Assembly (NCBI GenBank): GCA_964493305.1
Contig: CAZBLW010000001.1
Span: 17,743 to 81,742, forward strand
Direction of reading: 5' to 3'
Length of the DNA: 64,000 nucleotides
DNA from: an uncultured Gammaproteobacteria bacterium
GTDB taxonomy: Bacteria > Patescibacteriota > Patescibacteriia > S139-126
In this document: positions 3,547-64,000 of the stretch, one piece after another
Layout of the letters: every line of letters starts with the position of its first letter
How positions within the stretch are numbered: position 1 is the stretch's first letter
Translations under genes and position numbers: made by a program
The notes under the pieces: model-generated
What the model was told of the DNA's origin: nothing
The model's database searches: none
Seen by the model: only the letters and a program-made list of their open reading frames with translations

Positions 3547-4255
3547 GGTGGTTGTTTTTAAACACGATTAATTGCTGTAAACCGGTTAGAACAGTATTGA
3601 TAAACCAATATAAGGTGAGGCCTGCTGGAAAAGACAAGCCAATAAAAACGGTAAATATCGGCATAACATAAATCATCTGCTTGTTCATAATTGCGGCTAG
3701 GTTTTCATCTTTTGATCCGGGAGTATTTATTTCTGGTCGTTTAGTTGACAACATTCTTCCTTGCCAAAACTGAGCAGCTCCTGCTAGTAAAGCCAACCAA
3801 ATGCTTCTTTGCGACAATTCGATAAAACCAAAAGCCAAGGTATTTAAACTACCGGGATTATGTATAAAAGGATACAAATATTCTAAATAACCATTGGCTA
3901 GTCCGGTACGAAAGACTTGATAAACAGCTATTAAGAAGGGGAGTTGAACCAAAATTGGCAAGCAAGATGAGGCGGGATTAATTTTTTCGTTTTTATATAA
4001 CTCCATGGTGGCCTTGGCTTGAGCTTCTCTATCTTGACCATACTTTTCTTTGATAGCGGTAAGTTTGGGTTGTAATTCTTGTAAGGCCTTTTGTGATATA
4101 ATCGCCTTTTTATTAAGTGGGTACAGTAATAATTTGATTAATATTGTGAGAACTATTATTGCCAAGCCCAAATCAGACCAAGGCAAAACGTCGTATAGCC
4201 AAACCAACAAGTTTAGTAATGGTACATAAAAAATTGTTTTAAAAAATTCAATCAT
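3518..4255 (-). CDS. yidC: membrane protein insertase YidC (short Gram-positive/Oxa1 type)
   Basis: 245 aa with LLYPLNKKAIISQKALQELQPKLTAIKEKYGQD...MELYKNEKINPASSCLPILVQLPFLIAVYQV. Conserved rnpA-yidD-yidC order. Confidence 0.9.
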   Translation of the reverse strand: MIEFFKTIFYVPLLNLLVWLYDVLPWSDLGLAIIVLTILIKLLLYPLNKKAIISQKALQELQPKLTAIKEKYGQDREAQAKATMELYKNEKINPASSCLPILVQLPFLIAVYQVFRTGLANGYLEYLYPFIHNPGSLNTLAFGFIELSQRSIWLALLAGAAQFWQGRMLSTKRPEINTPGSKDENLAAIMNKQMIYVMPIFTVFIGLSFPAGLTLYWFINTVLTGLQQLIVFKNNHHDSKLKTTD

Positions 4256-4259
4256 TTAT

Positions 4260-4517
4260 TTATTTTATAGGATCATAACCTCCCTTGCTAAAAGGGTGAC
4301 ACCGCAACAATCGATAAAAACCAAGCCCCAGACCTTTTATTAGACCCTTTTTGTTTATAGCATCCACAGTGTATTGTGAACAGGTGGGATAAAAACGGCA
4401 AGTGCCATAAGGTTTTAAAATTTTTATATACCCATGATCAAGCGAAAAAATTTTCTGATAAACTTTTATTATCAAAATAAGGGCCTGGCTTATTTTCTTT
4501 TCTAATTTCAATAACAT
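4260..4517 (-). CDS. yidD: membrane protein insertion efficiency factor YidD
   Basis: [41 protein letters not shown] is the DUF37/YidD signature. Confidence 0.9.
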
Positions 4518-4834
4518 ATTTTATTTAAATCCGCCGAAATCTCTTGATGGGTCTTACCAATAGCTGAATTTTTAACAACCAACATATAATCAAAAGGCGG
4601 AATTTTATCTTTAATCTTATATAAGTCGCTTTTTATCCAACGACGCAATAAATTACGTTTAGTGGCTAGTTTAGATGTTTTCTGGGAAATTACTATACCA
4701 AAACGTGGGTTTTTTTGTTCTGGTTTTGATTTATAAATATAAAAAATAAAAAAGTTTGAATGTCTTTTTTTTCCTTTTTTAGCCACTTGGGCAAAATCCG
4801 CTTGCCTTTGTAAACGATAGGCCGGTGATAACAT
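4508..4834 (-). CDS. rnpA: ribonuclease P protein component RnpA
   Basis: 108 aa, basic, with the [17 protein letters not shown]...[10 protein letters not shown] pattern. Sits between rpmH and yidD. Confidence 0.9.
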
Positions 4835-4838
4835 AGCT

Positions 4839-4979
4839 TTAACTAACGCTCAATCGTTGTCTTTGTTTGTTTCTTCTTCTTTTTAGGACTTTTTTGCCTT
4901 TGGTTGAAGAGTTTCTTGCTCTAAAACCGTGTGTTTTTATTCTTTTTCTTTTTTTTGGTTGATAGGTTCTTTTAGGCAT
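4839..4979 (-). CDS. rpmH: 50S ribosomal protein L34
   Basis: Not in the ORF track. Hand translation of the minus strand gives [46 protein letters not shown] (46 aa), the canonical L34 pattern. It lies immediately upstream of rnpA. Confidence 0.9.
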
Positions 4980-5169
4980 ATTTTTAATTAGTAAAATAAA
5001 TATATCAAGAAGTTATCATTAGGTCAAAAAAATAATTTTGTTTTTGTTTTTTCAGTTTTCACAATTTTTCAACATCTTATCACCTTTTTAAATTAATTGG
5101 ATGGTTTTTAAAAATAATCAGCAATGCTATAATGTGAAACGTTATTAGTAAAAAATAATTAAAACAAAT

Positions 5170-6540
5170 ATGGACTCAAAACAACTTTGGGAGGCAATCT
5201 TAGGCGAACTAGAACTCAGTCTGAGCAAAGCTAATTTCACTACCTGGTTCAAAAATACTTTTATTTTACAAATGAATGATCACGAAATTATTGTGGCCGT
5301 TCCAAACGCTTTCACCAAAGCTTGGTTAGAAAAAAAATATCACAAATATATTACTGATGCTCTAAAAAATGTTAGTGATAAAACCTTTACCAAGGTTAAT
5401 TATGTCGTAGAAACCAAAGAAAAACAAGCTGTTAACCCAAACACTGAAAATGATTTTGGTCTAATAGAAAATCAGCCCGTCTCTACACCAAATAATCACC
5501 CGGTTACCAATAATAAAGTCGGTCTAAATCCAAAATACACATTTGAAAGTTTCGTGGTTGGTAAGGGTAATGAGTTGGCACACGCTGCTTGTTTGGCAGT
5601 AGCAAAAAAACCGGGTGAAGTTTATAACCCGCTTTTTATTTATGGAGGGGTGGGTTTAGGTAAAACCCATTTAATGCAAGCGGTGGGTAATTTTATTTTA
5701 AACGAACAAACCAACAAAAAGGTCCTTTATGTTACCAGTGAAAAATTTACCAATGACTTCATACAACTAGTGCAACAAGGTGAAGCCAAAAAATTCAAAG
5801 AAAAATATCGCAACATTGATGTTTTGTTGGTTGATGATATCCAATTTTTAGCTGGCAAAGAGCAAACTCAAGAAGAATTTTTCCATACCTTCAATACCCT
5901 TCATCAAGAAAACAAACAAATAATTATTTCTTCTGATCGACCACCCAAAGCTATTCCTGCGCTGGAACAAAGGCTTATTTCTCGTTTTGAATGGGGGATG
6001 ATTGTTGATGTAAATGCCCCTGATTTAGAGACCAGAATTGCTATTATTGCTACTAAAATGAAGGAAAAAAACCTATCTTTATCTGATGAAATTGTCCGTA
6101 TAATTGCTACTTCGGTACAAAATAATGTGCGGGAATTGGAAGGAATCCTAAATAAAATTATTGCCTTTCATCAACTTAATAACACCCCACCGACAGAAGA
6201 CAGTGTAAAAAGTATAATTTCCTCCTTGTCCACTAATATTAAAAGAAGTCATATTACTCCTAAAAAATTAATTCAGACTGTTGCTGCTTACTTTGATATT
6301 GATACTGATGGTCTGGTGGGGAATAGCAGAAAAAAAGAATTGGTAGTGCCTAGACAAATAGTCATGTTTTTAATGAGAGAAGAATTAGACGCGTCTTATC
6401 CTAATATCGGACAAGAGTTGGGAGGAAGGGATCATACTACTGCAATGCATGCTTGTAACAAAATTAGTAAGGAAGTTGAAAGTGATGAAAAGATTGCTCG
6501 TGACATCGAAATGATTAAACAGCGCTTATACAATGGTTAA
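5170..6540 (+). CDS. dnaA: chromosomal replication initiator DnaA
   Basis: 456 aa. N-terminal MDSKQLWEAILGELELSLSKANFTTWF, AAA+ Walker A GGVGLGKTHL, Walker B LLVDDIQFL, and a C-terminal DNA-binding domain. Confidence 0.95.
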   Translation: MDSKQLWEAILGELELSLSKANFTTWFKNTFILQMNDHEIIVAVPNAFTKAWLEKKYHKYITDALKNVSDKTFTKVNYVVETKEKQAVNPNTENDFGLIENQPVSTPNNHPVTNNKVGLNPKYTFESFVVGKGNELAHAACLAVAKKPGEVYNPLFIYGGVGLGKTHLMQAVGNFILNEQTNKKVLYVTSEKFTNDFIQLVQQGEAKKFKEKYRNIDVLLVDDIQFLAGKEQTQEEFFHTFNTLHQENKQIIISSDRPPKAIPALEQRLISRFEWGMIVDVNAPDLETRIAIIATKMKEKNLSLSDEIVRIIATSVQNNVRELEGILNKIIAFHQLNNTPPTEDSVKSIISSLSTNIKRSHITPKKLIQTVAAYFDIDTDGLVGNSRKKELVVPRQIVMFLMREELDASYPNIGQELGGRDHTTAMHACNKISKEVESDEKIARDIEMIKQRLYNG

Positions 6541-26651: not shown

Positions 26652-26728
26652 TGGAGCGGGTGACCGGATTCGAACCGGCGACCTTTTCCTTGGCAAGGAA
26701 ACGTTCTAGCCAACTGAACTACACCCGC
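26652..26728 (-). tRNA. tRNA-Gly (anticodon GCC), CCA encoded
   Basis: GCGGGUG-UA-GUUC-AGUUGGCUA-GAAC-G-UUUCC-UUGCCAA-GGAAA-AGGUC-GCCGG-UUCGAAU-CCGGU-CACCCGC-U-CCA. Confidence 0.9.
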
Positions 26729-48617: not shown

Positions 48618-49037
48618 TTAGTAATACGGTTGATAAGTGGCCCACAGAATTGATCTAAAAATCCAAGTTGATAGCGCGTAAGCCAGTACCACAATCAATA
48701 GCCCAATAGTGGCTTGGGTCAAAATTTTTCTAGCTTTTTCTACTTGTTGATCATTACCGGCTGCAGTCATCCACAAAAAACCACCGTAGATAATAAGTAC
48801 CGTAAATAAAACTCCCAAAAATCCAAGCAGGGCATTGATAATCAATGCCACAACTTCGCGTACGTCAGTATCAGCATTGCCTAGTTCAGCTGCTACACCA
48901 GTATCAATAATACCTTGTTTGATTTTAGTACCAGCATTTTGTCCAGTGGTCGTGGCTAGCGCTGGTAAAGCAGCCGGGAATATCAACAATCCGAGAATAA
49001 AAGTAGTGATAATTATGGAAAAGATATTTTTTTTCAT
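48618..49037 (-). CDS. two-helix pilin-like membrane protein, paralog 1 (T4SS-pilin/VirB2-like topology)
   Basis: ORF trimmed to MKKNIFSIIITTFILG (signal-like). Conserved core LGFLGVLFTVLIIYGGFLWMTAAGNDQQVEKARKILTQATIGLLIVVLAYALSTWIF. Confidence 0.55.
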   Translation of the reverse strand: MKKNIFSIIITTFILGLLIFPAALPALATTTGQNAGTKIKQGIIDTGVAAELGNADTDVREVVALIINALLGFLGVLFTVLIIYGGFLWMTAAGNDQQVEKARKILTQATIGLLIVVLAYALSTWIFRSILWATYQPYY

Positions 49038-49041
49038 ATTT

Positions 49042-49425
49042 TTAAACTGAGCCGGTAGCTGAGAGTATAACATTGATAATAAATAATGATAAACCATAAG
49101 CCAAAATCACTATCAACAGTCCTACTGTGGAACTGGTTAAAATCTTCCTCGCCTTATCAATTTGTTGATCATTGCCAGCTGCGGTCATCCACAAAAAACC
49201 ACCGTAGATAATAAGGACCAAAAAAATCGTACCCACAAAACCCAGGGCATATTTGATAATATTACCGACTAAAAATGCCGGATCTTCAGCTTCAGCAAGT
49301 CTGGCTTTATCGTTGGTCGCTTGGGCAGTAGTTAAGGCATCTTGCAGTACGGAAGCTTTTACTAAGCTAGGCCAGGTAAATAGGAGGCCAACAAGTAAAT
49401 AAAATTTAATTTTTAGTTGATTCAT
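49042..49425 (-). CDS. two-helix pilin-like membrane protein, paralog 2
   Basis: ORF trimmed to MNQLKIKFYLLVGLLFTWPSLVKA, with GGGGGT upstream. Core FLVLIIYGGFLWMTAAGNDQQIDKARKILTSSTVGLLIVILAYGLS. A 40-nt stretch is nearly identical to paralog 1. Confidence 0.55.
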   Translation of the reverse strand: MNQLKIKFYLLVGLLFTWPSLVKASVLQDALTTAQATNDKARLAEAEDPAFLVGNIIKYALGFVGTIFLVLIIYGGFLWMTAAGNDQQIDKARKILTSSTVGLLIVILAYGLSLFIINVILSATGSV

Positions 49426-49427
49426 AA

Positions 49428-49757
49428 TTATACCCCCGAAGCAATTAAGGTTTTTAAAACAAATTGAGTGATAGCAAAAGCCAGGGCCACAATCAGTAAA
49501 CCAATAGTAGAAGAGCGGATAGTTTTTTGGGCTTTTTGAATTTTCTCCTCGTTGCCCGCTGCAGTCATCCAATTAAAACCAGCATAAATAATCAAAACCA
49601 AAAAAACTGTACCCAAAATTCCTAAAATAGAGTTAATAATTCCTCCCACTACATCTGGAAGTGATGGATTGGTAAGACCAGTAGCACGTTGAGCATCAGA
49701 TAGCTGTTGGTCCATCGAAGGGATTTGAGCGTAAGCTTGCTTAATAAATTTAAACAT
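49428..49757 (-). CDS. two-helix pilin-like membrane protein, paralog 3 (no N-terminal signal segment)
   Basis: Core GTVFLVLIIYAGFNWMTAAGNEEKIQKAQKTIRSSTIGLLIVALAFAITQF. Confidence 0.5.
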   Translation of the reverse strand: MFKFIKQAYAQIPSMDQQLSDAQRATGLTNPSLPDVVGGIINSILGILGTVFLVLIIYAGFNWMTAAGNEEKIQKAQKTIRSSTIGLLIVALAFAITQFVLKTLIASGV

Positions 49758-49760
49758 AAA

Positions 49761-50369
49761 TTAAATACAGATATAAAGACTACTACACAGTTCAGCACAA
49801 GTAGCGTTTGGTCGAAAAAGATCGCCATTGGTGCAGCTAGCACTAGTTTGTCCATTTAGACAAGTATATTCAGTAGTATTAACCGGATGTAGACAAGCGC
49901 CAGTGGTAGTTGTACCCCCACTGCCAGAAGAAGCCTTATTGTAAGATTGGATAAAAAAGTTTGTCAAAGCAAAAGATAAAAATACCAATATAAAACCAAC
50001 TACCGCACTAGCTAAAATTTTGGTAGCTTGTCTAACTTTTTCTTCATTGCCACCAGCAGTCATCCAAGTAAAACCGCCATAGATAAATAGTACCAGCATC
50101 ACCACCCCGATAATACTTAAAATCCCGTTGATAATCGTGCCAATTCTAGTACCCAAAGAAACGTCAGATTTTAAACTACCAGCCGCTTTATCAAGATTTG
50201 ATAGGGCATCAGCGCGGGCTAGTAAAGTATAATTTGTGTTTGTTTCAGCGGCCGATACCTCAGTCGCTAAGACAAACAATCCACCAATAAACACGGTGGC
50301 TATCAAAATGACAGCCACCGTGTTGTGGAATATAAGTTCTTTTATTTTATTTGAAAAATAAAAATTCAT
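49761..50369 (-). CDS. two-helix pilin-like membrane protein, paralog 4, with a Cys-rich C-terminal extension
   Basis: ORF trimmed to MNFYFSNKIKELIF... (TM/signal). Core VVMLVLFIYGGFTWMTAGGNEEKVRQATKILASAVVGFILVFLSFALT. Tail ...TGACLHPVNTTEYTCLNGQTSASCTNGDLFRPNATCAELCSSLYICI. Confidence 0.5.
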   Translation of the reverse strand: MNFYFSNKIKELIFHNTVAVILIATVFIGGLFVLATEVSAAETNTNYTLLARADALSNLDKAAGSLKSDVSLGTRIGTIINGILSIIGVVMLVLFIYGGFTWMTAGGNEEKVRQATKILASAVVGFILVFLSFALTNFFIQSYNKASSGSGGTTTTGACLHPVNTTEYTCLNGQTSASCTNGDLFRPNATCAELCSSLYICI

Positions 50370-50377
50370 TACAGTAA

Positions 50378-50731
50378 TTATGTAGTAGCACCAATGATTA
50401 CGCTGAAGATCCAAGTAGAAAGTGCGTAAGCGATGATAATAATTAATAAACCAATTACGCCAGCGCTGATAATTTTCTTAGCCTGTGCAACAGCTTCTTC
50501 GTTACCACCTGCGGTCATCCAACGGAAACCACCAGCAATGATAATCAAAGTCACTACGATACCCAAAATGCCTAAAACTACATTGATAATACGAGCGATG
50601 GTTTCTCGGACGTCTTGAGTGCCAAGACCGATTAAGCTACCATAGCCAGTACCAAATGGGTCACCAGCCATAGCGGCGACTGGAGCTAATAAAAGTGACA
50701 AAAGACCAAAAGCTAAAAGTTGTTTTTTCAT
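50378..50731 (-). CDS. two-helix pilin-like membrane protein, paralog 5
   Basis: Strong AAGGAGG RBS and signal peptide MKKQLLAFGLLSLLLAPVAAMA. Core GIVVTLIIIAGGFRWMTAGGNEEAVAQAKKIISAGVIGLLIIIIAYALSTWIF. Confidence 0.6.
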   Translation of the reverse strand: MKKQLLAFGLLSLLLAPVAAMAGDPFGTGYGSLIGLGTQDVRETIARIINVVLGILGIVVTLIIIAGGFRWMTAGGNEEAVAQAKKIISAGVIGLLIIIIAYALSTWIFSVIIGATT

Positions 50732-57485: not shown

Positions 57486-58913
57486 TTATTCGCAACAAGG
57501 TTGACATGATATATCACAGCGTTCACAACCATCACAACGAGTATCGCAAGATTGGCAGTTTTGTTCACATCGTGATTGACAGCGATATTCACAAGTAGTC
57601 TCACAGTTATTATCGCAGCCACCTTGGCAAGTGTAACAATTTTGGCAAGTATTACATTCTTCACAATCCTCACAGCGATAACAATTTTGGCAAGTGTAAC
57701 AGGTGCCACACATTTTCATATCTTGTTCATTTTCTTGATTATTGTCGCAACTGGTGACACAAAAACCATCGCAGTATTCACAGCCTTGGCAAAAATATTC
57801 GCAGTTATTATGAGTGATAGCTTTGTTCGCTTGTGGTTGTGGAGATAGGTGTTGCCCAATCTGTTTGGCAGTCAAAATACGTAGAGCACATTCGATAGGT
57901 ACCGGTGAAGTTGAAAGTTTGTTAGTCAGATAGTTGTCAGCCCAACAGCCGCCGTTGCAAAACTCCAGCGCGGGACAGTTTTGGCAAGTTTCGTTTATTG
58001 ATTTGTCACTGGGTGGGAGAGTTGATTTTTTGATTGCTAAGGTAATTTCTTCTGGAGTAGCTGTCGCTGCATCAATAATCATATTTGCACGATTATTAGT
58101 TAAATGGTGACAATGATACAGTCCACCTTCAATATCTAGAGCCCATAGGCCCCGGCCAGCTCCGCAATAAGTGAATTCACTTTTTTTGCCATGATATTTA
58201 ATCAGGGTGCTAATTTTTTTTCTGCCATAGCGTTCAAAACATTGTTTGATTTGTTCCCCCCAAATATTGAGAGTTTCTTCAGTCCAGTTCATATTGAAAG
58301 CAGGAAAAAGTCCTACGACTTTGAAACCTTGATTAAGTAAAAATTCTGATATTTCCATCAGATAATAAACGCTATCAGGAGTGACAGTGACACGAGCGGT
58401 ATCATTGGGGGTAATATTTAGGGCAAAAGGAATATTTTTAACAACATCAGCAAATGAACCACGACCATTGACATAGGGTCGTTGTTTATCTTGAATATGA
58501 GCCGGTCCATCAATTGAGCAGTGAATGCCCGCTCCTTGTGATATCATCACTTTCATTTTTTGTTCATCTAACGCTATTAAATTTGAAGTCATGCCCCAAC
58601 TGAATTTTATTTTTTGTAAATCAAATGATTGTTTAGCTAGAGTGTTGAGTTGTTGAATTTCATCCCAAGCTAACATAGGCTCGCCCCCCATATAATAGAA
58701 GCTGACTTCTTTTAATGTTGATAGTTGTGCTGCTAAAAAATTTTGTACGGCTTGCCAAACTTTAAATACATTCATTTTGCGTTTACCTTTGTCACCGAAG
58801 TAACAATAAGTACATAGTAGTTGGCAGATATTGGTAGCATCAATCATAAAGTTGATACTTGCTTGATTGTTTTTAGCCAAGGTTTTGGCGGGTTGTTTGA
58901 CCATGGTTTTCAT
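57486..58913 (-). CDS. radical SAM / SPASM-domain enzyme with a fused ~105-aa CxxC-repeat tail
   Basis: CxxxCxxC (CQLLCTYCYF) radical-SAM cluster motif. SPASM CQNCPALEFCNGGCWADNY. The final ~105 residues contain about 38 Cys in a period-3 CxxC pattern (…CGTCYTCQNCYRCEDCEECNTCQNCYTCQGGCDNNCETTCEYRCQSRCEQNCQSCDTRCDGCERCDISCQPCC). Confidence 0.75.
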   Translation of the reverse strand: MKTMVKQPAKTLAKNNQASINFMIDATNICQLLCTYCYFGDKGKRKMNVFKVWQAVQNFLAAQLSTLKEVSFYYMGGEPMLAWDEIQQLNTLAKQSFDLQKIKFSWGMTSNLIALDEQKMKVMISQGAGIHCSIDGPAHIQDKQRPYVNGRGSFADVVKNIPFALNITPNDTARVTVTPDSVYYLMEISEFLLNQGFKVVGLFPAFNMNWTEETLNIWGEQIKQCFERYGRKKISTLIKYHGKKSEFTYCGAGRGLWALDIEGGLYHCHHLTNNRANMIIDAATATPEEITLAIKKSTLPPSDKSINETCQNCPALEFCNGGCWADNYLTNKLSTSPVPIECALRILTAKQIGQHLSPQPQANKAITHNNCEYFCQGCEYCDGFCVTSCDNNQENEQDMKMCGTCYTCQNCYRCEDCEECNTCQNCYTCQGGCDNNCETTCEYRCQSRCEQNCQSCDTRCDGCERCDISCQPCCE

Positions 58914-59057
58914 GGTATTTCTCCTTTCTTTGGAATTTAGTTGTTAAATAGCAAATCAGCTTATCTTAGCACTAAATTTGCTTTTGTAAAGAGGTAAGAT
59001 TTGGTTAGAGTAAAATTTGCTAGAATGATTTTTTTGTGAAACAATAAAATAAATTTT

Positions 59058-59963
59058 ATGAAACTAAACCCCTTAACTCCAGCTGAAAAGCAGATTATCA
59101 TCGACAAAGGCACAGAACTGCCTGGCAGTGGCGAGTATGATAATTTTTTTCAAGAAGGCATCTATACTTGTAGGCAGTGCAACGCCTGGCTTTATCGTTC
59201 GGCTGATAAATTTTCCGCCCACTGCGGTTGGCCCAGTTTTGATCAAGAAATTGCGGGAGCGGTTAAAAGACAAACTGATGCTGATGGTACGCGCACGGAG
59301 ATTTTGTGTGCGCGCTGTGGGGGACACTTGGGACATGTGTTTACGGGCGAAAAATTTACGCCTCGTGATACGCGGCACTGTGTGAACTCTTTGTCTTTGC
59401 GTTTTGTACCTGCTGAAAAATTACCTAGCAACAAACAAACTATTGTTTTGGGCGGCGGGTGTTTTTGGTGTTTGGAAGCTTATTTTTCCCAAGTGCGAGG
59501 AATACTGGAAGTGAAATCAGGTTATGCTGGCGGCAATATTGCCAATCCCACTTATGAGCAGGTTTGCAGAGGTAAGACCAATCATGCGGAAGTGGTAGAA
59601 ATAACTTTTGACCAAACTCAAGTTGCTTTGGAAATGATTCTGCAAATATTTTTCACTCTGCATGATCCTACCACGCGCAATCGCCAGGGTGCTGATGTAG
59701 GGAGTCAGTATCGCTCGATCATTTTGGCAAGTGATGATGAACAAAAAGAAATTGTGGAAAATTTTATTGCCAAACTAACTGCAGAAAAATTTTATTCTGA
59801 ACCGATTGTCACTGAAGTAAAACTTTTGGCTAAATTTTATCAGGCGGAAGATTATCACCAAGAGTATTTTAAAAATCATCCTGAAGCCGCTTACTGTCAG
59901 GCGGTGATTTCGCCAAAAATGGCCAAACTTAGAAAGCATTTCTCCACCCTTTTAAAACCCTAA
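59058..59963 (+). CDS. msrAB: bifunctional peptide-methionine sulfoxide reductase MsrB-MsrA fusion
   Basis: N-terminal SelR/MsrB zinc motifs (CRQCNAWL...CARCGGHLGHVF). C-terminal MsrA GGGCFWCLEAYF active site. Confidence 0.9.
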   Translation: MKLNPLTPAEKQIIIDKGTELPGSGEYDNFFQEGIYTCRQCNAWLYRSADKFSAHCGWPSFDQEIAGAVKRQTDADGTRTEILCARCGGHLGHVFTGEKFTPRDTRHCVNSLSLRFVPAEKLPSNKQTIVLGGGCFWCLEAYFSQVRGILEVKSGYAGGNIANPTYEQVCRGKTNHAEVVEITFDQTQVALEMILQIFFTLHDPTTRNRQGADVGSQYRSIILASDDEQKEIVENFIAKLTAEKFYSEPIVTEVKLLAKFYQAEDYHQEYFKNHPEAAYCQAVISPKMAKLRKHFSTLLKP

Positions 59964-59964
59964 A

Positions 59965-59990
59965 ACTGCTCTAAAATAAGAGCAGTTTTT
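59965..59990 (+). terminator. rho-independent terminator after msrAB
   Basis: ACTGCTCT-aaaata-AGAGCAGT followed by TTTT. Confidence 0.55.
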
Positions 59991-60184
59991 GGTTGATTTT
60001 TATGGTCAAAAATGGTGAAATAAAGACAAGAAGATAATTATTAATTACTAATAACTAATTACGAATCAATTAATTAATTTTTAATTATTTAACTTCTAAT
60101 TCTTTATTCGTAATACGTAATTCTTAATTCCTAATTCTTATCGTAATTCGTAATACGTAATTCTTAATTCTTAAATTTATTAAC

Positions 60185-60934
60185 ATGCGAAAAAATATAT
60201 ATATCATAGTTGTTCTTTTGCTTCTCCTTCTTTTGGGGGTGATAGCTTTTTGGTGGTGGCAGCAAGCAAACAATAAAAAAGTTTCCGATTCAACCAGTCA
60301 AACTGATAGTCAAACAGTCCAAGTGGTTGAACCAGAAGAGTTTACCCCAACAGAAGATATTGTAGTGGATGATGCAACTGAAACAGGTGAGGTGGTGATA
60401 GTAGATGAACCAGTAAATAATGAACCAGTGGTAACAGACAACCAACCGCAACAGAACAATCAAGACAATCAAGCTCCCAACAATCAGCCCCCAGCTCAAG
60501 AACCGCCAAGCAATGTTTGCCAAACTGACACTGACTGCCAAACCAATTTTTATTGTGAATATGCCAAAGGCCAGTGTGGTGGTAGTGGTGAGTGTGTAGC
60601 CAAATCTGAGGCATGTACTTTGCAGTATGCTCCAGTGTGTGGTTGTGATGGTAAAACCTATGGCAATTCTTGTCAGGCTAGAGCCGCGGGAGTGAGTGTC
60701 GAGTATGACGGGCAGTGTCAAAATACTTGTCAGTCAAGTAATGATTGTGACGCCAATGAATATTGTGCCAAAGAAGTAGGACAGTGTAACCAAGTAGGTG
60801 AGTGTAAAACCAAACCCCAAACTTGTACGATTATTTATTCTCCAGTCTGCGGGTGTGATGGTGAAACTTATGGCAACAGTTGTCAAGCAACCCTGGCTGG
60901 TATGACTGTTTCCTCCGCCGGCGCTTGTCAGTAG
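60185..60934 (+). CDS. secreted/membrane-anchored protein with two Kazal-type protease-inhibitor-like domains
   Basis: N-terminal TM/signal, a Pro/Gln/Asn-rich linker, then two copies of C-x-Y-x-PVCGCDG-x-TYGNSCQA (the Kazal signature). Confidence 0.75.
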   Translation: MRKNIYIIVVLLLLLLLGVIAFWWWQQANNKKVSDSTSQTDSQTVQVVEPEEFTPTEDIVVDDATETGEVVIVDEPVNNEPVVTDNQPQQNNQDNQAPNNQPPAQEPPSNVCQTDTDCQTNFYCEYAKGQCGGSGECVAKSEACTLQYAPVCGCDGKTYGNSCQARAAGVSVEYDGQCQNTCQSSNDCDANEYCAKEVGQCNQVGECKTKPQTCTIIYSPVCGCDGETYGNSCQATLAGMTVSSAGACQ

Positions 60935-60993
60935 TTTACCTGTCTAAGATTGTCATTCCGTATTTAGTACGGAATCTAAAAAAAAGAATTTCT

Positions 60994-61046
60994 GAATTTA
61001 TTCCTGAATTAATTCAAGAGCTATTACTTTCAACTTTATAAACTTT
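60994..61046 (+). repeat. copy 1 of a 52-nt direct repeat (leader of the NYN gene)
   Basis: GAATTTATTCCTGAATTAATTCAAGAGCTATTACTTTCAACTTTATAAACTT is identical to 61679-61730, and each copy ends about 20 nt before an ATG. Confidence 0.8.
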
Positions 61047-61065
61047 CTAACTTTAAACTAAATTA

Positions 61066-61567
61066 ATGTCGACAAAAGAAAAAAAATTACGCCTTTATAG
61101 ATAGTCAAAATTTAAATCTTGGCATTCAAAGTTTAGGTTGGAAACTTGATTATAGAAGGTTCAGAAGATATCTAAAAGAAAAGTATCAAGTTGACGTTGC
61201 GTATTTATTTATTGGTTATATGCCTGAGAATCAGGATTTGTATTCGGCTTTGCAGTCATATGGATATGTCTTGATATTTAAACCGACTTTGTCAGATAAA
61301 GATGGAAATGTGAAAGGCAATGTGGATGCAGATTTGGTTTTACAAGCTATGATTGATTATGAAAAATATGATAAAGCATTAATAGTATCTAGCGACGGAG
61401 ATTTTTATTGTTTAGTAAAATATTTATATAAACAAGAGAAATTAAAAGTAGTTATTAGTCCTTATGTAAAAACCTGCTCTATTTTATTGAAAAAAACTGC
61501 TAAAGAAAAAATAATATTTATGGATAATCTGCAAAATAAATTGGCCTATAAAGAAAAACACCGCTAG
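61066..61567 (+). pseudogene. NYN/LabA-like domain protein gene disrupted by a frameshift in an A8 homopolymer (61079-61086)
   Basis: The ATG at 61066 reads MSTKEKKLRLYR*. The +1 frame has no start codon but reads ...YAFIDSQNLNLGIQSLGWKLDYRRFRRYLKEKYQVDVAYLFIGY... into ORF 61220..61567 (NVDADLVLQAMIDY...IVSSDGDFYCLVKYL is the NYN motif). Removing one A restores a single ~166-codon ORF. Confidence 0.65.
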
Positions 61568-61634
61568 GGGACAAAACCCAAAGAGGTGTTCTTCAATGTG
61601 TATTCTGTAGATATTATATATTTTTTTAATAAAT

Positions 61635-61666
61635 TTGTCAATATTAGGGTATATAAATGTTATAAT
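61635..61666 (+). promoter_or_regulatory. near-consensus sigma70 promoter with extended -10 (TTGTCA-17-TGtTATAAT)
   Basis: -35 TTGTCA at 61635-61640, TG at 61658-61659 and -10 TATAAT at 61661-61666. It lies 13 nt upstream of repeat copy 2. Confidence 0.5.
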
Positions 61667-61678
61667 TAAAATATTCAC

Positions 61679-61730
61679 GAATTTATTCCTGAATTAATTC
61701 AAGAGCTATTACTTTCAACTTTATAAACTT
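61679..61730 (+). repeat. copy 2 of the 52-nt direct repeat (leader of the AbrB-like gene)
   Basis: Identical to 60994-61045. Confidence 0.8.
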
Positions 61731-61750
61731 TTAACTTTTAACTAATTACC

Positions 61751-61936
61751 ATGGGCCGTCGTGTACTAAATCAAAATAATATACGCAAACTAACAAAAAC
61801 AGGTGGTGGTAAGTCCATCGCGGTGACTATTCCCATTGAAATGGTGAGGGAATTGAAGTGGCGGGAAAGGCAGAAGGTAGTGGTGACAAAACGAGGAAAG
61901 AGTATTATTATAAAGGATTGGAAAAAAATAATATGA
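61751..61936 (+). CDS. AbrB/MazE/SpoVT-family (swapped-hairpin) DNA-binding protein
   Basis: 61 aa with GGGKSIAVTIPIEMVRELKWRERQKVVVTKRGKSIIIK, the swapped-hairpin barrel pattern. Confidence 0.6.
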   Translation: MGRRVLNQNNIRKLTKTGGGKSIAVTIPIEMVRELKWRERQKVVVTKRGKSIIIKDWKKII

Positions 61937-61993
61937 CAAATTTTATTCATAGTGCAAATAGCAAGGTATAAAGTGAAATATTAAAATTTAATA

Positions 61994-64000
61994 ATGTTAA
62001 ATTTAAAAAATATTGAAATAAAAAAGAATTATGATTCAGATAAGGACGATCTTCTTAAAGATTTTTTTATTCCTGTATTATCAACAGCCGTACTCTACAG
62101 AAGACTTGCGGGATTTTTTTCTTCAGGTATATTTTCCGCAGCTTCTAGGGGCATTAAAGAGCTAATTGATAATAATGGTAAAATGCAGTTGATTATAGGC
62201 GTTCAAGTTAATGAAGAAGACTATTTGATGTTAAAAAAAATAGTTAAAGAATCAAAAGAATTGCCTGAGAAGTACATAACAAATAAAATTGATAATTTAG
62301 AGGAATTTTTAAAAAGTGAACATGTTGAAGCTATGGGATGGATGATTTTAAATAATTTATTAGATATAAAATTTGCAGTTACTAACCGTGGTGGTATTTT
62401 TCATATGAAGGTAGGAATAGTTACTGATAAAAATGGTGATAGTTTATCATTTAGTGGTAGTGATAATGAAACTCCTTCTGGTTGGAAGCATAATGTTGAG
62501 GAGTTTAAAGTGTTTCGTAAATGGATAGATTCAGAAGCTGACTATTTTAATGCCGATGAAGAAAAGTTTAATCGTTTTTGGAATGATAAAGGTAATAATG
62601 TAACTATTTTTGAATTACCAAAAGCAATAAAGGAAAAAATTGTTAAAAGTGTACCAAAAGAACAAAGTGATTTAAAAATATTTAAAAATGAAAATAATTT
62701 AGATAGTAATATATATTTAAATACTCCTGTTGAAATTAAATTAAGACCTCACCAAAAGGAAGCAATAAAAAAATGGGAAAATAATAGTTATAAAGGAATA
62801 TTAGCCATGGCTACTGGTTCAGGAAAAACAAAATCAGCATTATATGCAGTTAAAAATTTATTAAATAATGACAAATCTCTATGTGTAATTATTGCTGTTC
62901 CATTTGGTCATTTAATAAATCAATGGATAACTAATGATATTAGACTTCAATTTCCAGATATTTCTATTATTGAAGCGAGTTCAGAAAATACTAAATGGCG
63001 AAGTCAATTAAAATTGATGTTAGAAGGATATTCAAAAAATATTACAAAAGTTTTTTTTATTGTAACTACATATGCAACCTTATCGTCAGATGATTTTATT
63101 AATATTTTTCTACATAAATATAATAATAACCTAAATTATTTTTTAATTGCTGATGAAGTCCATAATCTTGGAGCAAAAGAAACTCAACGAGCAATGTTAG
63201 TAGAGTATAACTATAGAATGGGATTAACCGCTACACCTAAACGACACTTTGATGATCTAGGAACGGATAAAATAATTAAATATTTTAATAAGATTGTGTA
63301 TGAGTATGAATTAAAAGACGCAATAAGAGATGGTTATCTCGTAAAGTATAAATATTATCCTATTATTATTGAGATGACAGATGAAGAATATGATGAGTAT
63401 AATAATATATCACAAAAGATAAGTAAGCGGGCGGCTATATTAAATTTACGAAAATCAGATATATTAATAAATAATGATTTAAGTTTACAAATTTTATTAC
63501 AAAAAAGAAGTAAAATAATAAAGGAGTCATCTGCAAAAATTCCAATATTAGATAAGACTTTAAAAGAAATGAAAAAAAAGGGATCAATCGATCATTTGTT
63601 AATTTATTGTGATAATATTAAACAATTAGAAAAAGTACAAGTAATACTATATAATGAAGGTATAATTAGTCATCAGTTTACGAAAGAGGAAAGTCTAAAA
63701 GAAAGAAGAAATATACTTGATCATTTTATACAAGGTAATTATAAGTGTTTGGTAGCTATTAAATGTCTTGATGAAGGTGTTGACGTACCTTCTATAAAAA
63801 CAGCAATTATTATAGCTAGTACAACCAATCCTCGGGAGTATATACAAAGAAGAGGGAGAGTATTAAGAAAAGAGCAAAATAAAGAAAATGCCATAATATA
63901 CGATTTTATAGTAATACCTAAGCTTGCAAGAAGTAGTGAAATAGATCAATATGAAAAACAGATATTACGAAAAGAATTAACTAGAGTATTAGATTTTATA
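61994..64000 (+). CDS. PLD-family (HKD) nuclease domain fused to an SF2 DEAH/ResIII-type helicase; partial, continues beyond window end
   Basis: Frame from the ATG at 61994 (MLNLKNIEIKK...). The ATG at 62031 is out of frame and hits a stop. HKD motif IFHMKVGIVTD. Helicase motif I AMATGSGKT, II IADEVHNL, III GLTATP, VI QRRGRVLR. Confidence 0.7.
   Translation, partial: MLNLKNIEIKKNYDSDKDDLLKDFFIPVLSTAVLYRRLAGFFSSGIFSAASRGIKELIDNNGKMQLIIGVQVNEEDYLMLKKIVKESKELPEKYITNKIDNLEEFLKSEHVEAMGWMILNNLLDIKFAVTNRGGIFHMKVGIVTDKNGDSLSFSGSDNETPSGWKHNVEEFKVFRKWIDSEADYFNADEEKFNRFWNDKGNNVTIFELPKAIKEKIVKSVPKEQSDLKIFKNENNLDSNIYLNTPVEIKLRPHQKEAIKKWENNSYKGILAMATGSGKTKSALYAVKNLLNNDKSLCVIIAVPFGHLINQWITNDIRLQFPDISIIEASSENTKWRSQLKLMLEGYSKNITKVFFIVTTYATLSSDDFINIFLHKYNNNLNYFLIADEVHNLGAKETQRAMLVEYNYRMGLTATPKRHFDDLGTDKIIKYFNKIVYEYELKDAIRDGYLVKYKYYPIIIEMTDEEYDEYNNISQKISKRAAILNLRKSDILINNDLSLQILLQKRSKIIKESSAKIPILDKTLKEMKKKGSIDHLLIYCDNIKQLEKVQVILYNEGIISHQFTKEESLKERRNILDHFIQGNYKCLVAIKCLDEGVDVPSIKTAIIIASTTNPREYIQRRGRVLRKEQNKENAIIYDFIVIPKLARSSEIDQYEKQILRKELTRVLDFI

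Follow-up and report, generated by a model that had tools for sequence, protein, structure and literature searches.

The gene examined here lies in a 64,000-nucleotide stretch of DNA (hereafter the window, meaning the whole stretch analysed) and is split between two reading frames (Table 1). Read directly from the plus strand, its authentic start codon is the ATG at 61066–61068. From there frame 0 reads ATG TCG ACA AAA GAA AAA AAA TTA CGC CTT TAT AGA TAG, or MSTKEKKLRLYR*, a mini-ORF of 12 codons (the start and 11 sense codons) closed by the TAG at 61102–61104. The NYN/LabA-like domain occupies the +1 frame, which is open after the TAA at 61064–61066 and up to the TAG at 61565–61567; this body has zero internal stops, and its acidic motifs FIDSQN, GNVD and SSDGDF are undamaged. 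The earliest ATG, GTG or TTG in the +1 frame is the ATG at 61220, 3′ of the first catalytic motif, FIDSQN. With start and domain in different frames, the NYN domain cannot be translated in the window as a single ORF from a start codon of its own.

The original prediction had placed the start and seven codons in one frame and an NYN body lacking its own start in the other. Its description was exact throughout. The proposed switch point, the homopolymer AAAAAAAA (A8), likewise lies at exactly the coordinates given for it, and removing one A does produce the expected intact gene, a 501-nt ORF of 166 codons. In the sister genome described below, an in-frame A7 is read as GAA AAA AAT (Glu-Lys-Asn, codons 5–7), and the window tract holds one A more. 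The product of the window's frame 0 and the intact sister protein have their first six residues, MSTKEK, in common, and the repaired protein runs from MSTKEK into NYAFIDSQNLNLGIQSLGWK across the frame junction. Because the repaired ORF matches its family in both length and N-terminal architecture, the split is real and not a chance pattern of ORFs. The annotation should list a frameshifted NYN gene in place of a 115-aa protein.

Table 1. Features at the split NYN locus, in window coordinates.
Feature	Position	Strand	Basis
R1, left copy of the 74-nt direct repeat, in the upstream/promoter region	60983..61056	+	Repeat search, flank BLAST; also in the sister genome
Frame-0 mini-ORF, MSTKEKKLRLYR*	61066..61104	+	Sequence read; N-terminus equals that of the sister protein
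A8 homopolymer	61079..61086	+	One A above the in-frame A7 of the sister genome
+1-frame NYN body, Asn7 to TAG 61565–61567	61085..61567	+	Pfam, PADLOC NYN, PDB 2qip, identity to the sister genome
Convergent promoter and hairpin element	61544..61648	-	Promoter scan, 29-locus alignment, covariation, covariance model, fold
R2, right-hand copy of the 74-nt direct repeat, immediately 5′ of the AbrB/MazE-like gene	61668..61741	+	Repeat search
AbrB/MazE-fold small DNA-binding protein gene, 61 aa	61751..61936	+	Pfam PF04014; conserved in the sister genome
PbeA-like helicase, runs off the window	61994..64000	+	Pfam ResIII/SNF2 helicase domains; PADLOC on an identical contig

The NYN protein and its family

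Against the Pfam NYN model PF01936 the repaired protein scored 54.3 bits (E 2.8e-14, residues 10–142; cut-off 24.2 bits), which bears out the NYN/LabA-like identity proposed at the outset. PADLOC also scores the gene as NYN, and the protein matches PDB 2qip, the uncharacterised NYN structure of VPA0982, with an E of 8.4e-11. The acidic metal-binding residues (the D of xIDxxN, the D of GxxD, and DGD) are present, with FIDSQN, KGNVDAD and SSDGDF aligning to 2qip. The function of the NYN family as a whole is undefined (PMC5499597); judged from these motifs, the product is a putative RNA-cutting enzyme.

Relatives of the repaired protein abound in Patescibacteria, where 7,972 of 8,000 scored candidates matched. 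These 166-aa proteins are about 80% identical to it over 100% of their length; the best 120 of the 7,972 show 74–84% identity, 166 aa being their commonest length. Relatives have the N-terminal architecture M-x4-[EK]-[KN]-N-Y-A-F-I-D-S-Q-N-L in common. NCBIfam has no model specific to this 166-aa Patescibacteria protein, sequenced phages include no carrier of the family, and plasmids carry NYN genes only at 28% identity.

At all loci examined, the neighbours of NYN were unrelated from one locus to the next, and the family is accessory, solitary and non-syntenic. Decayed copies were found at five loci (L045, L047, L048, L050 and L051). At L050, a 5′-truncated NYN (114–515) and a second, divergent NYN (1763–2015) lie within 2 kb of each other, each with the antisense element described below; two copies on one contig indicate that a genome can hold several NYN copies, decayed ones included.

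The putative promoters of these genes lie close to their start codons. In many homologues (L009, L014–L016, L020, L033, L041–L044) some 7 nt separate the end of a -10 box (TATAAT) from the ATG, and in the window (61054–61065) a TAAACT lies 6 nt upstream of ATG 61066. Leaderless mRNAs need a 5′-terminal AUG, and the spacing of the -10 boxes suggests that NYN mRNAs are of this kind.

Neighbourhood and sister genome

Downstream of NYN the window enters the defence island that had been proposed. On a contig identical to the window (L001), PADLOC called PbeA (E 4.6e-230) and PbeC (4e-81), with a weaker match to 'PLD_Helicase'; the order after the AbrB-like gene (window and L001 1–6235) is PbeA, a 58-aa ORF, PbeC, a Dnd-associated protein, a Dam-type methylase and a DUF3800 protein. 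The PbeA-like helicase opens this defence module and belongs to the surroundings of the NYN gene, not to the gene itself. At other loci NYN is not tied to defence genes. We considered the AbrB/MazE-like gene as a VapBC-like partner of NYN and rejected it: the order is wrong, each gene has a promoter copy of its own, the gap between them measures 183 nt, and at other loci NYN homologues lack an AbrB neighbour.

A scan of species-representative genomes yielded a sister genome, contig CAZINS010000009.1 of a MAG (L006), which aligns to window positions 59015–61932 with 94% identity. This MAG carries a plainly wrong taxonomic label. Homology ends at 61932, right after the AbrB-like gene, and L006 instead has a type I R-M HsdM and a 296-aa ORF at 3685–6355; NYN and the AbrB-like gene thus stand at the conserved edge of a strain-variable island. 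In L006 the tract is A7, the gene is intact, and its product is 100% identical to the repaired window protein. Comparison with related strains had been proposed as a check on the tract, and with A7 in L006 and A8 in the window it is polymorphic. The cluster of this allele in the protein database has exactly two entries, P0121 (115 aa, from ATG 61220) and P0140 (166 aa, from L006).

Only five differences separate the two genomes over 60800–61800, and two of these are in the length of an A-tract; the flanking msrAB gene is about 10% diverged. Within the NYN gene the frameshift is the sole lesion relative to L006. The lack of secondary lesions, together with the small number of differences from L006, indicates that the frameshift is very recent, and the intact A7 of L006 indicates that A8 is the derived state. 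Three homopolymers in all differ from L006, each in the same direction (window +1); the other two are at 60978–60985 (A8 vs A7) and 61922–61928 (A7 vs A6). Changes in tract length thus make up a major class of the variation that separates these lineages.

Several further features of the window were recorded. A 475-aa radical-SAM protein (57486–58913, minus strand) has a highly Cys-rich C-terminal third with repeated CxxCxxC, and its gene (window ~57488–59014) is wholly missing in L006. A 249-aa protein at 60185–60934 combines two Kazal-type serine-protease-inhibitor domains with a hydrophobic segment at its N-terminus and is probably secreted or membrane-anchored; the 3′ half of this gene is nearly identical in L006, and the flanking genes are ~10% diverged. 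Four diverged copies of a 159-nt unit (62–75% identity, 380–950 nt apart) lie over small minus-strand ORFs at 48669–50575 and may represent an array of paralogous genes or a cluster of repeat proteins. By repeat similarity only, tRNA-like repeats were noted at 1089–1180 and 1752–1843 (86% identical, 663 nt apart), with a more distant one at 26666–26722.

Independent checks on the sequence around the A8 tract

Illumina-derived Logan contigs from four SRA runs (SRR9016293, SRR9016294, SRR31189354 and SRR35272830) provided an independent check. They match the window at 99.8–100% identity up to 61023 and from 61702 on, none of them spans the NYN tract, and they bear out both the A8 at 60978–60985 and the A7 at 61922–61928. 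Confirmation of these two homopolymer differences indicates that tract-length polymorphism between the lineages is genuine and frequent. The contigs extend for exactly 30 nt into the repeat core (53 nt, exact) that flanks NYN and stop there, which fits a k=31 de Bruijn break. A Logan unitig between the repeat copies would be expected to measure ~690 nt and the smallest Logan contigs observed were ~900 nt; the inter-repeat unitig was probably below a Logan length cut-off. A metagenome scan for the window allele with A6 to A10 gave zero matches.

We also asked how other tracts behave in the window, which has 35% GC and 64 A/T tracts of at least 8 nt, 50 of them in frame inside long ORFs. When changes of ±1 were simulated at 199 tracts, only gene-junction artefacts were flagged besides NYN. 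Poor homopolymer quality across the window was therefore rejected, NYN being the sole tract-split gene. A junction at 13.7–15.7 kb, considered as a split gene, resolved into two distinct genes, with a complete glycogen synthase among them.

The tract in homologues

The N-terminal leaders of 39 intact homologues had longest A-runs of 2 to 7 (A7 in five, A8 in none), and the codons varied. These differing codons and run lengths mark the tract as a by-product of Lys, Glu and Asn codons. No out-of-frame allele at the tract was found at any of 44 reference-genome loci. Among 241 million metagenome records, at least 8 A directly 5′ of the conserved TTWYGCNTTYATHGAY core occurred in three contigs, all of them in frame and encoding Lys-Lys-Asn. 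Three homologues on long contigs appeared truncated and were considered as recurrent tract frameshifts; L050 and L051 proved to be 5′ deletions, and L052 was intact with a mis-called start.

A conserved antisense element and bracketing repeats

The 3′ end of the gene carries a second conserved feature on the opposite strand. In the window promoter scan, the minus-strand -35 box (TTGACA, 61641–61636) and -10 box (TATAAT, 61618–61613) of a sigma70-type promoter gave a perfect 12/12 score. Read on the minus strand, the layout is TTGACA, 17 nt, (TGn)TATAAT, 6 nt, AGAAUNAC..., a hairpin and a U-run, with a predicted antisense +1 near 61606 (AGAAUAC...). The hairpin (61594–61553, minus strand; 9–14 bp in the family) overlaps the NYN stop codon and is followed by the U-run.

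In an alignment of 29 loci the TTGAC of the -35 box is invariant, as are A2 and T6 of the -10 box. The hairpin covaries: 92% of cells are paired, against 43–63% in slid controls, and compensatory double changes occur in 8 of the 9 core pairs. There are 35 double-change cells, vs 10.3 ± 2.9 in shuffles, and none of 500 shuffles reaches the observed number. The G-U wobbles of the hairpin favour the minus strand (about 26 vs 7), and the window copy folds at -20.8 kcal/mol (z -3.7). A covariance model matched the window with 91.8 bits and found a single copy for each NYN gene, in every case antisense and at the 3′ end, across more than 40 loci; the matches include loci outside the training set, homologues of 39–57% identity and gene fragments. 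The 64-kb window holds no orphan copy, and an Rfam scan of 60000–62200 at E ≤ 1 returned nothing. We found no description that pairs NYN genes with a convergent promoter and hairpin. From its promoter, fold and covariation, the element is a putative cis-antisense sRNA of ~55–60 nt with a bidirectional terminator that it would share with NYN. The perfect preservation of the ORF and of this element also fits a gene that is still used, whether through an assembly error or through switching.

The window gene is bracketed by the direct repeats R1 and R2. R1 contains the 53-nt exact core at 60994–61046, its similarity to R2 goes on almost to the ATG, and R1, NYN and R2 form a 685-nt unit. Both repeats contain a perfect 10-bp palindrome, GAATTAATTC (61006–61015 and 61691–61700), upstream of NYN and of the AbrB/MazE-like gene; this palindrome may serve both genes as an operator, in which case they would be co-regulated.

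Across the window and L006 the repeats measure 68–79 nt with a spacing of 685/684 and reach the ATG of NYN and of the AbrB-like gene. Four other loci have repeats of their own. Those of L025 (19 nt, 2955–2973/3592–3610) end in the start ATGs of NYN and the gene that follows; those of L009 (64 nt, 2912–2975/3578–3641) contain an inverted repeat and then a T-run, resembling the terminator of the upstream gene; those of L040 (90 nt, 1695–1784/2513–2602) are GC-rich and resemble the 3′ end of the upstream coding sequence; and L034 has 18 nt (2927–2944/3575–3592). The repeat sequences are locus-specific and in two cases take in the ATGs of NYN and of the downstream gene; most NYN loci have no bracketing repeats. 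An apparent bracketing repeat at L042, considered as a target duplication, was a second copy of the antisense-promoter motif.

The bracketing repeats look like long, variable target duplications (18–90 nt) of an inserted ~0.6-kb module, although we know of no mechanism that can be named for duplications so long and variable. Identity of ~80% across unrelated contexts, together with the repeats and the antisense element, suggests a compact, horizontally moving module that may resemble a toxin–antitoxin (TA) pair. We raise as a tentative and still doubtful possibility that the ~0.6-kb unit (a leaderless NYN gene, a convergent promoter and a covarying hairpin sRNA) is an undescribed selfish or mobile module of Patescibacteria. 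Its nuclease would be checked by the cis-antisense RNA, and insertion of the unit, at unrelated sites between genes or at gene ends, would leave duplications of 18–90 nt that sometimes include the host ATG. The A8 would then mark a host lineage that has disarmed the nuclease and left the RNA part intact.

Discussion

We consider it reasonably probable that the window carries a recent slipped-strand null allele at an ordinary hotspot, in an accessory gene that is otherwise intact. A very recent slipped-strand insertion of one A would have turned A7 into A8 within the Glu-Lys-Asn codons 5–7. In the sequence as it stands, ribosomes starting at AUG 61066 read 12 codons and halt at TAG 61102, and the nuclease domain is left in the +1 frame with no usable start; the strain would have a null allele or, at best, one with a trace of leakiness. 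The A8 would be a strain-level polymorphism at an ordinary mutational hotspot of an AT-rich Patescibacteria genome; a -1 slip could restore the frame, but the tract would not be a conserved or dedicated regulatory device. The gene itself would belong to a solitary, non-syntenic and probably horizontally moving module of NYN and antisense RNA, of a type that is readily lost. A recent pseudogene had been named as one alternative, and recent inactivation fits best; the additional disabling mutations that would accompany a plain pseudogene are absent from the gene.

Two other explanations concern the tract itself. We judge it rather unlikely that the A8 arose in sequencing or assembly and that the true genome has A7 and an intact, expressed gene. 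Such an error would agree with the A7 of the sole other genome with this allele and with the lack of damage elsewhere in the gene and in its conserved antisense element; the tract falls in 61024–61701, between the ends of the Logan contigs, and all three homopolymer differences from L006 point the same way, two of them Logan-confirmed. Against it, the flanks match four independent short-read assemblies, including the two other +1 homopolymer sites, and 0 of ~50 in-gene A/T tracts of at least 8 nt in the window are out of frame, which indicates a low per-tract error rate. The sequencing indel named in the original prediction thus keeps the A7 of L006 and a tract not covered by contigs on its side, and loses ground to the confirmed neighbouring homopolymers and the in-frame tracts elsewhere. 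The ON/OFF switch that the prediction favoured, with NYN ON at A7 and OFF at A8 at high frequency under selection and possibly tied to the defence island, gained no added support and now seems improbable. A change of ±1 in this tract at the 5′ end of the ORF does toggle the product (166 aa with A7 vs 12 aa with A8), both states occur in close relatives, counted from two genomes, and the gene is an accessory one beside a strain-variable island (PbeA/C here, type I R-M in L006); moreover, 5′ poly(A) tracts have been proposed as general inactivation switches (PMC2831843). However, the tract is neither exceptional for a genome in which A8 is routine nor conserved in orthologues, whose A-runs span 2–7. 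Independent ON/OFF states do not recur in the family: 0 of 44 reference loci are out of frame, 3 of 3 metagenome A8 alleles are in frame, and the truncated homologues are 5′ deletions and not tract frameshifts. Slippage measured at A6/A7 is also ~1e-7, the rate of a hotspot but far under that of classical phase variation (PMC2831843).

The remaining explanations would let the A8 allele make protein. Programmed recoding, by transcriptional slippage or +1/-2 ribosomal slippage on A8 to give full-length NYN, is very unlikely. On an A8, RNA:DNA or tRNA-Lys pairing can survive a slip; if tRNA-Lys shifted by +1 at AAA 61081–83, exactly the wild-type protein (MSTKEKNYAF...) would result, and rescued poly(A) frameshifts are documented (PMC5009743, PMC4256274). 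Yet all homologues are single-frame, and their family shows no conserved slippery site of the kind that needs both frames; the 12-mer made from frame 0 is not conserved, and A7 is intact in the sister genome, which makes A8 derived. Reading by eye, we noticed no obvious Shine-Dalgarno-like or downstream-structure stimulator. Rescue of A8 requires a 1-nt deletion in the RNA, and slippage on A/T runs yields almost only insertions, rising steeply only at 9 nt or more (PMC5574713). It is more improbable still, to the point of being barely credible, that the gene is not really split and is read from a non-canonical start in the NYN frame or by re-initiation at ATG 61220. An ATA at 61097 lies in the NYN frame, and gene callers annotate the 115-aa ORF from ATG 61220 (P0121); but homologues all begin with an ATG ~7 codons before NYAFID, their -10 boxes suggest leaderless mRNAs, and the 115-aa product is without the first catalytic Asp motif.

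A recent null allele, if that is what the A8 represents, is of little weight on its own: it adds another homopolymer indel to those of accessory genes in AT-rich genomes, although the A7/A8 pair offers a concrete, read-checkable case for work on how often tracts slip in Patescibacteria. Of more use is what accompanies the gene of one of the most abundant and uniform small proteins of Patescibacteria, which has no fixed genomic position: the antisense element at every copy and, at some loci, the long target-like repeats. Should the module be a toxin/antisense-RNA pair or a mobile element, it would represent a new class, and one experimentally tractable in E. coli.

The closest precedent for the frameshift is inlA of Listeria monocytogenes (A7 in frame, A6 truncating; Orsi et al. 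2010, PMC2831843), in which a tract in codons 3–5 gives an 8-aa truncated product and slips at 4e-8 to 5e-7 per cell. In both genes a poly(A) stands a few codons after the start, a one-base change leads to a stop after ~10 codons, close strains differ in which allele they carry, and the change could in principle be reversed. They differ in that the out-of-frame state at NYN is the longer tract (A8), known here from the sequences of just two genomes. Contingency loci and phasevarions (poly-G/C or repeats, in Neisseria, Haemophilus and Campylobacter; PMC5084427, PMC8355987) are similar in having a homopolymer in the ORF of an accessory gene near defence or R-M genes. Their tracts are unusually long for the genome, conserved as tracts, heterogeneous in populations and switch at ~1e-2 to 1e-5; the NYN tract differs in its length, which is not unusual, and in its lack of conservation. 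Genes rescued by transcriptional slippage, in Buchnera and Blochmannia and in tssM of Citrobacter rodentium (PMC4256274; reviewed in PMC5009743), are alike in combining an A-run frameshift with an otherwise intact gene, in AT-rich reduced genomes. The rescued cases have longer runs (~9–11 A or more), whereas the A8 of NYN would need the disfavoured deletion in RNA (PMC5574713).

With the NYN/LabA-like PIN-like nucleases (PF01936, equal to COG1432; 2qip; PMC5499597), the protein shares a single domain and conserved acidic motifs. In contrast to that family at large, the Patescibacteria subfamily is very uniform (~80% identity, 166 aa) and has the convergent promoter and hairpin at the 3′ end of its gene. 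In the type I TA systems txpA/RatA and bsrG/SR4 of B. subtilis, antisense RNAs overlap the 3′ end of the toxin mRNA with a bidirectional terminator, and the toxin is a small membrane peptide. The NYN locus resembles these systems in its conserved convergent promoter and in a short, structured RNA, here predicted from sequence, complementary to the 3′ end of the mRNA. It differs from them in its protein, a soluble, predicted nuclease of 166 aa in place of a small hydrophobic peptide of the membrane.
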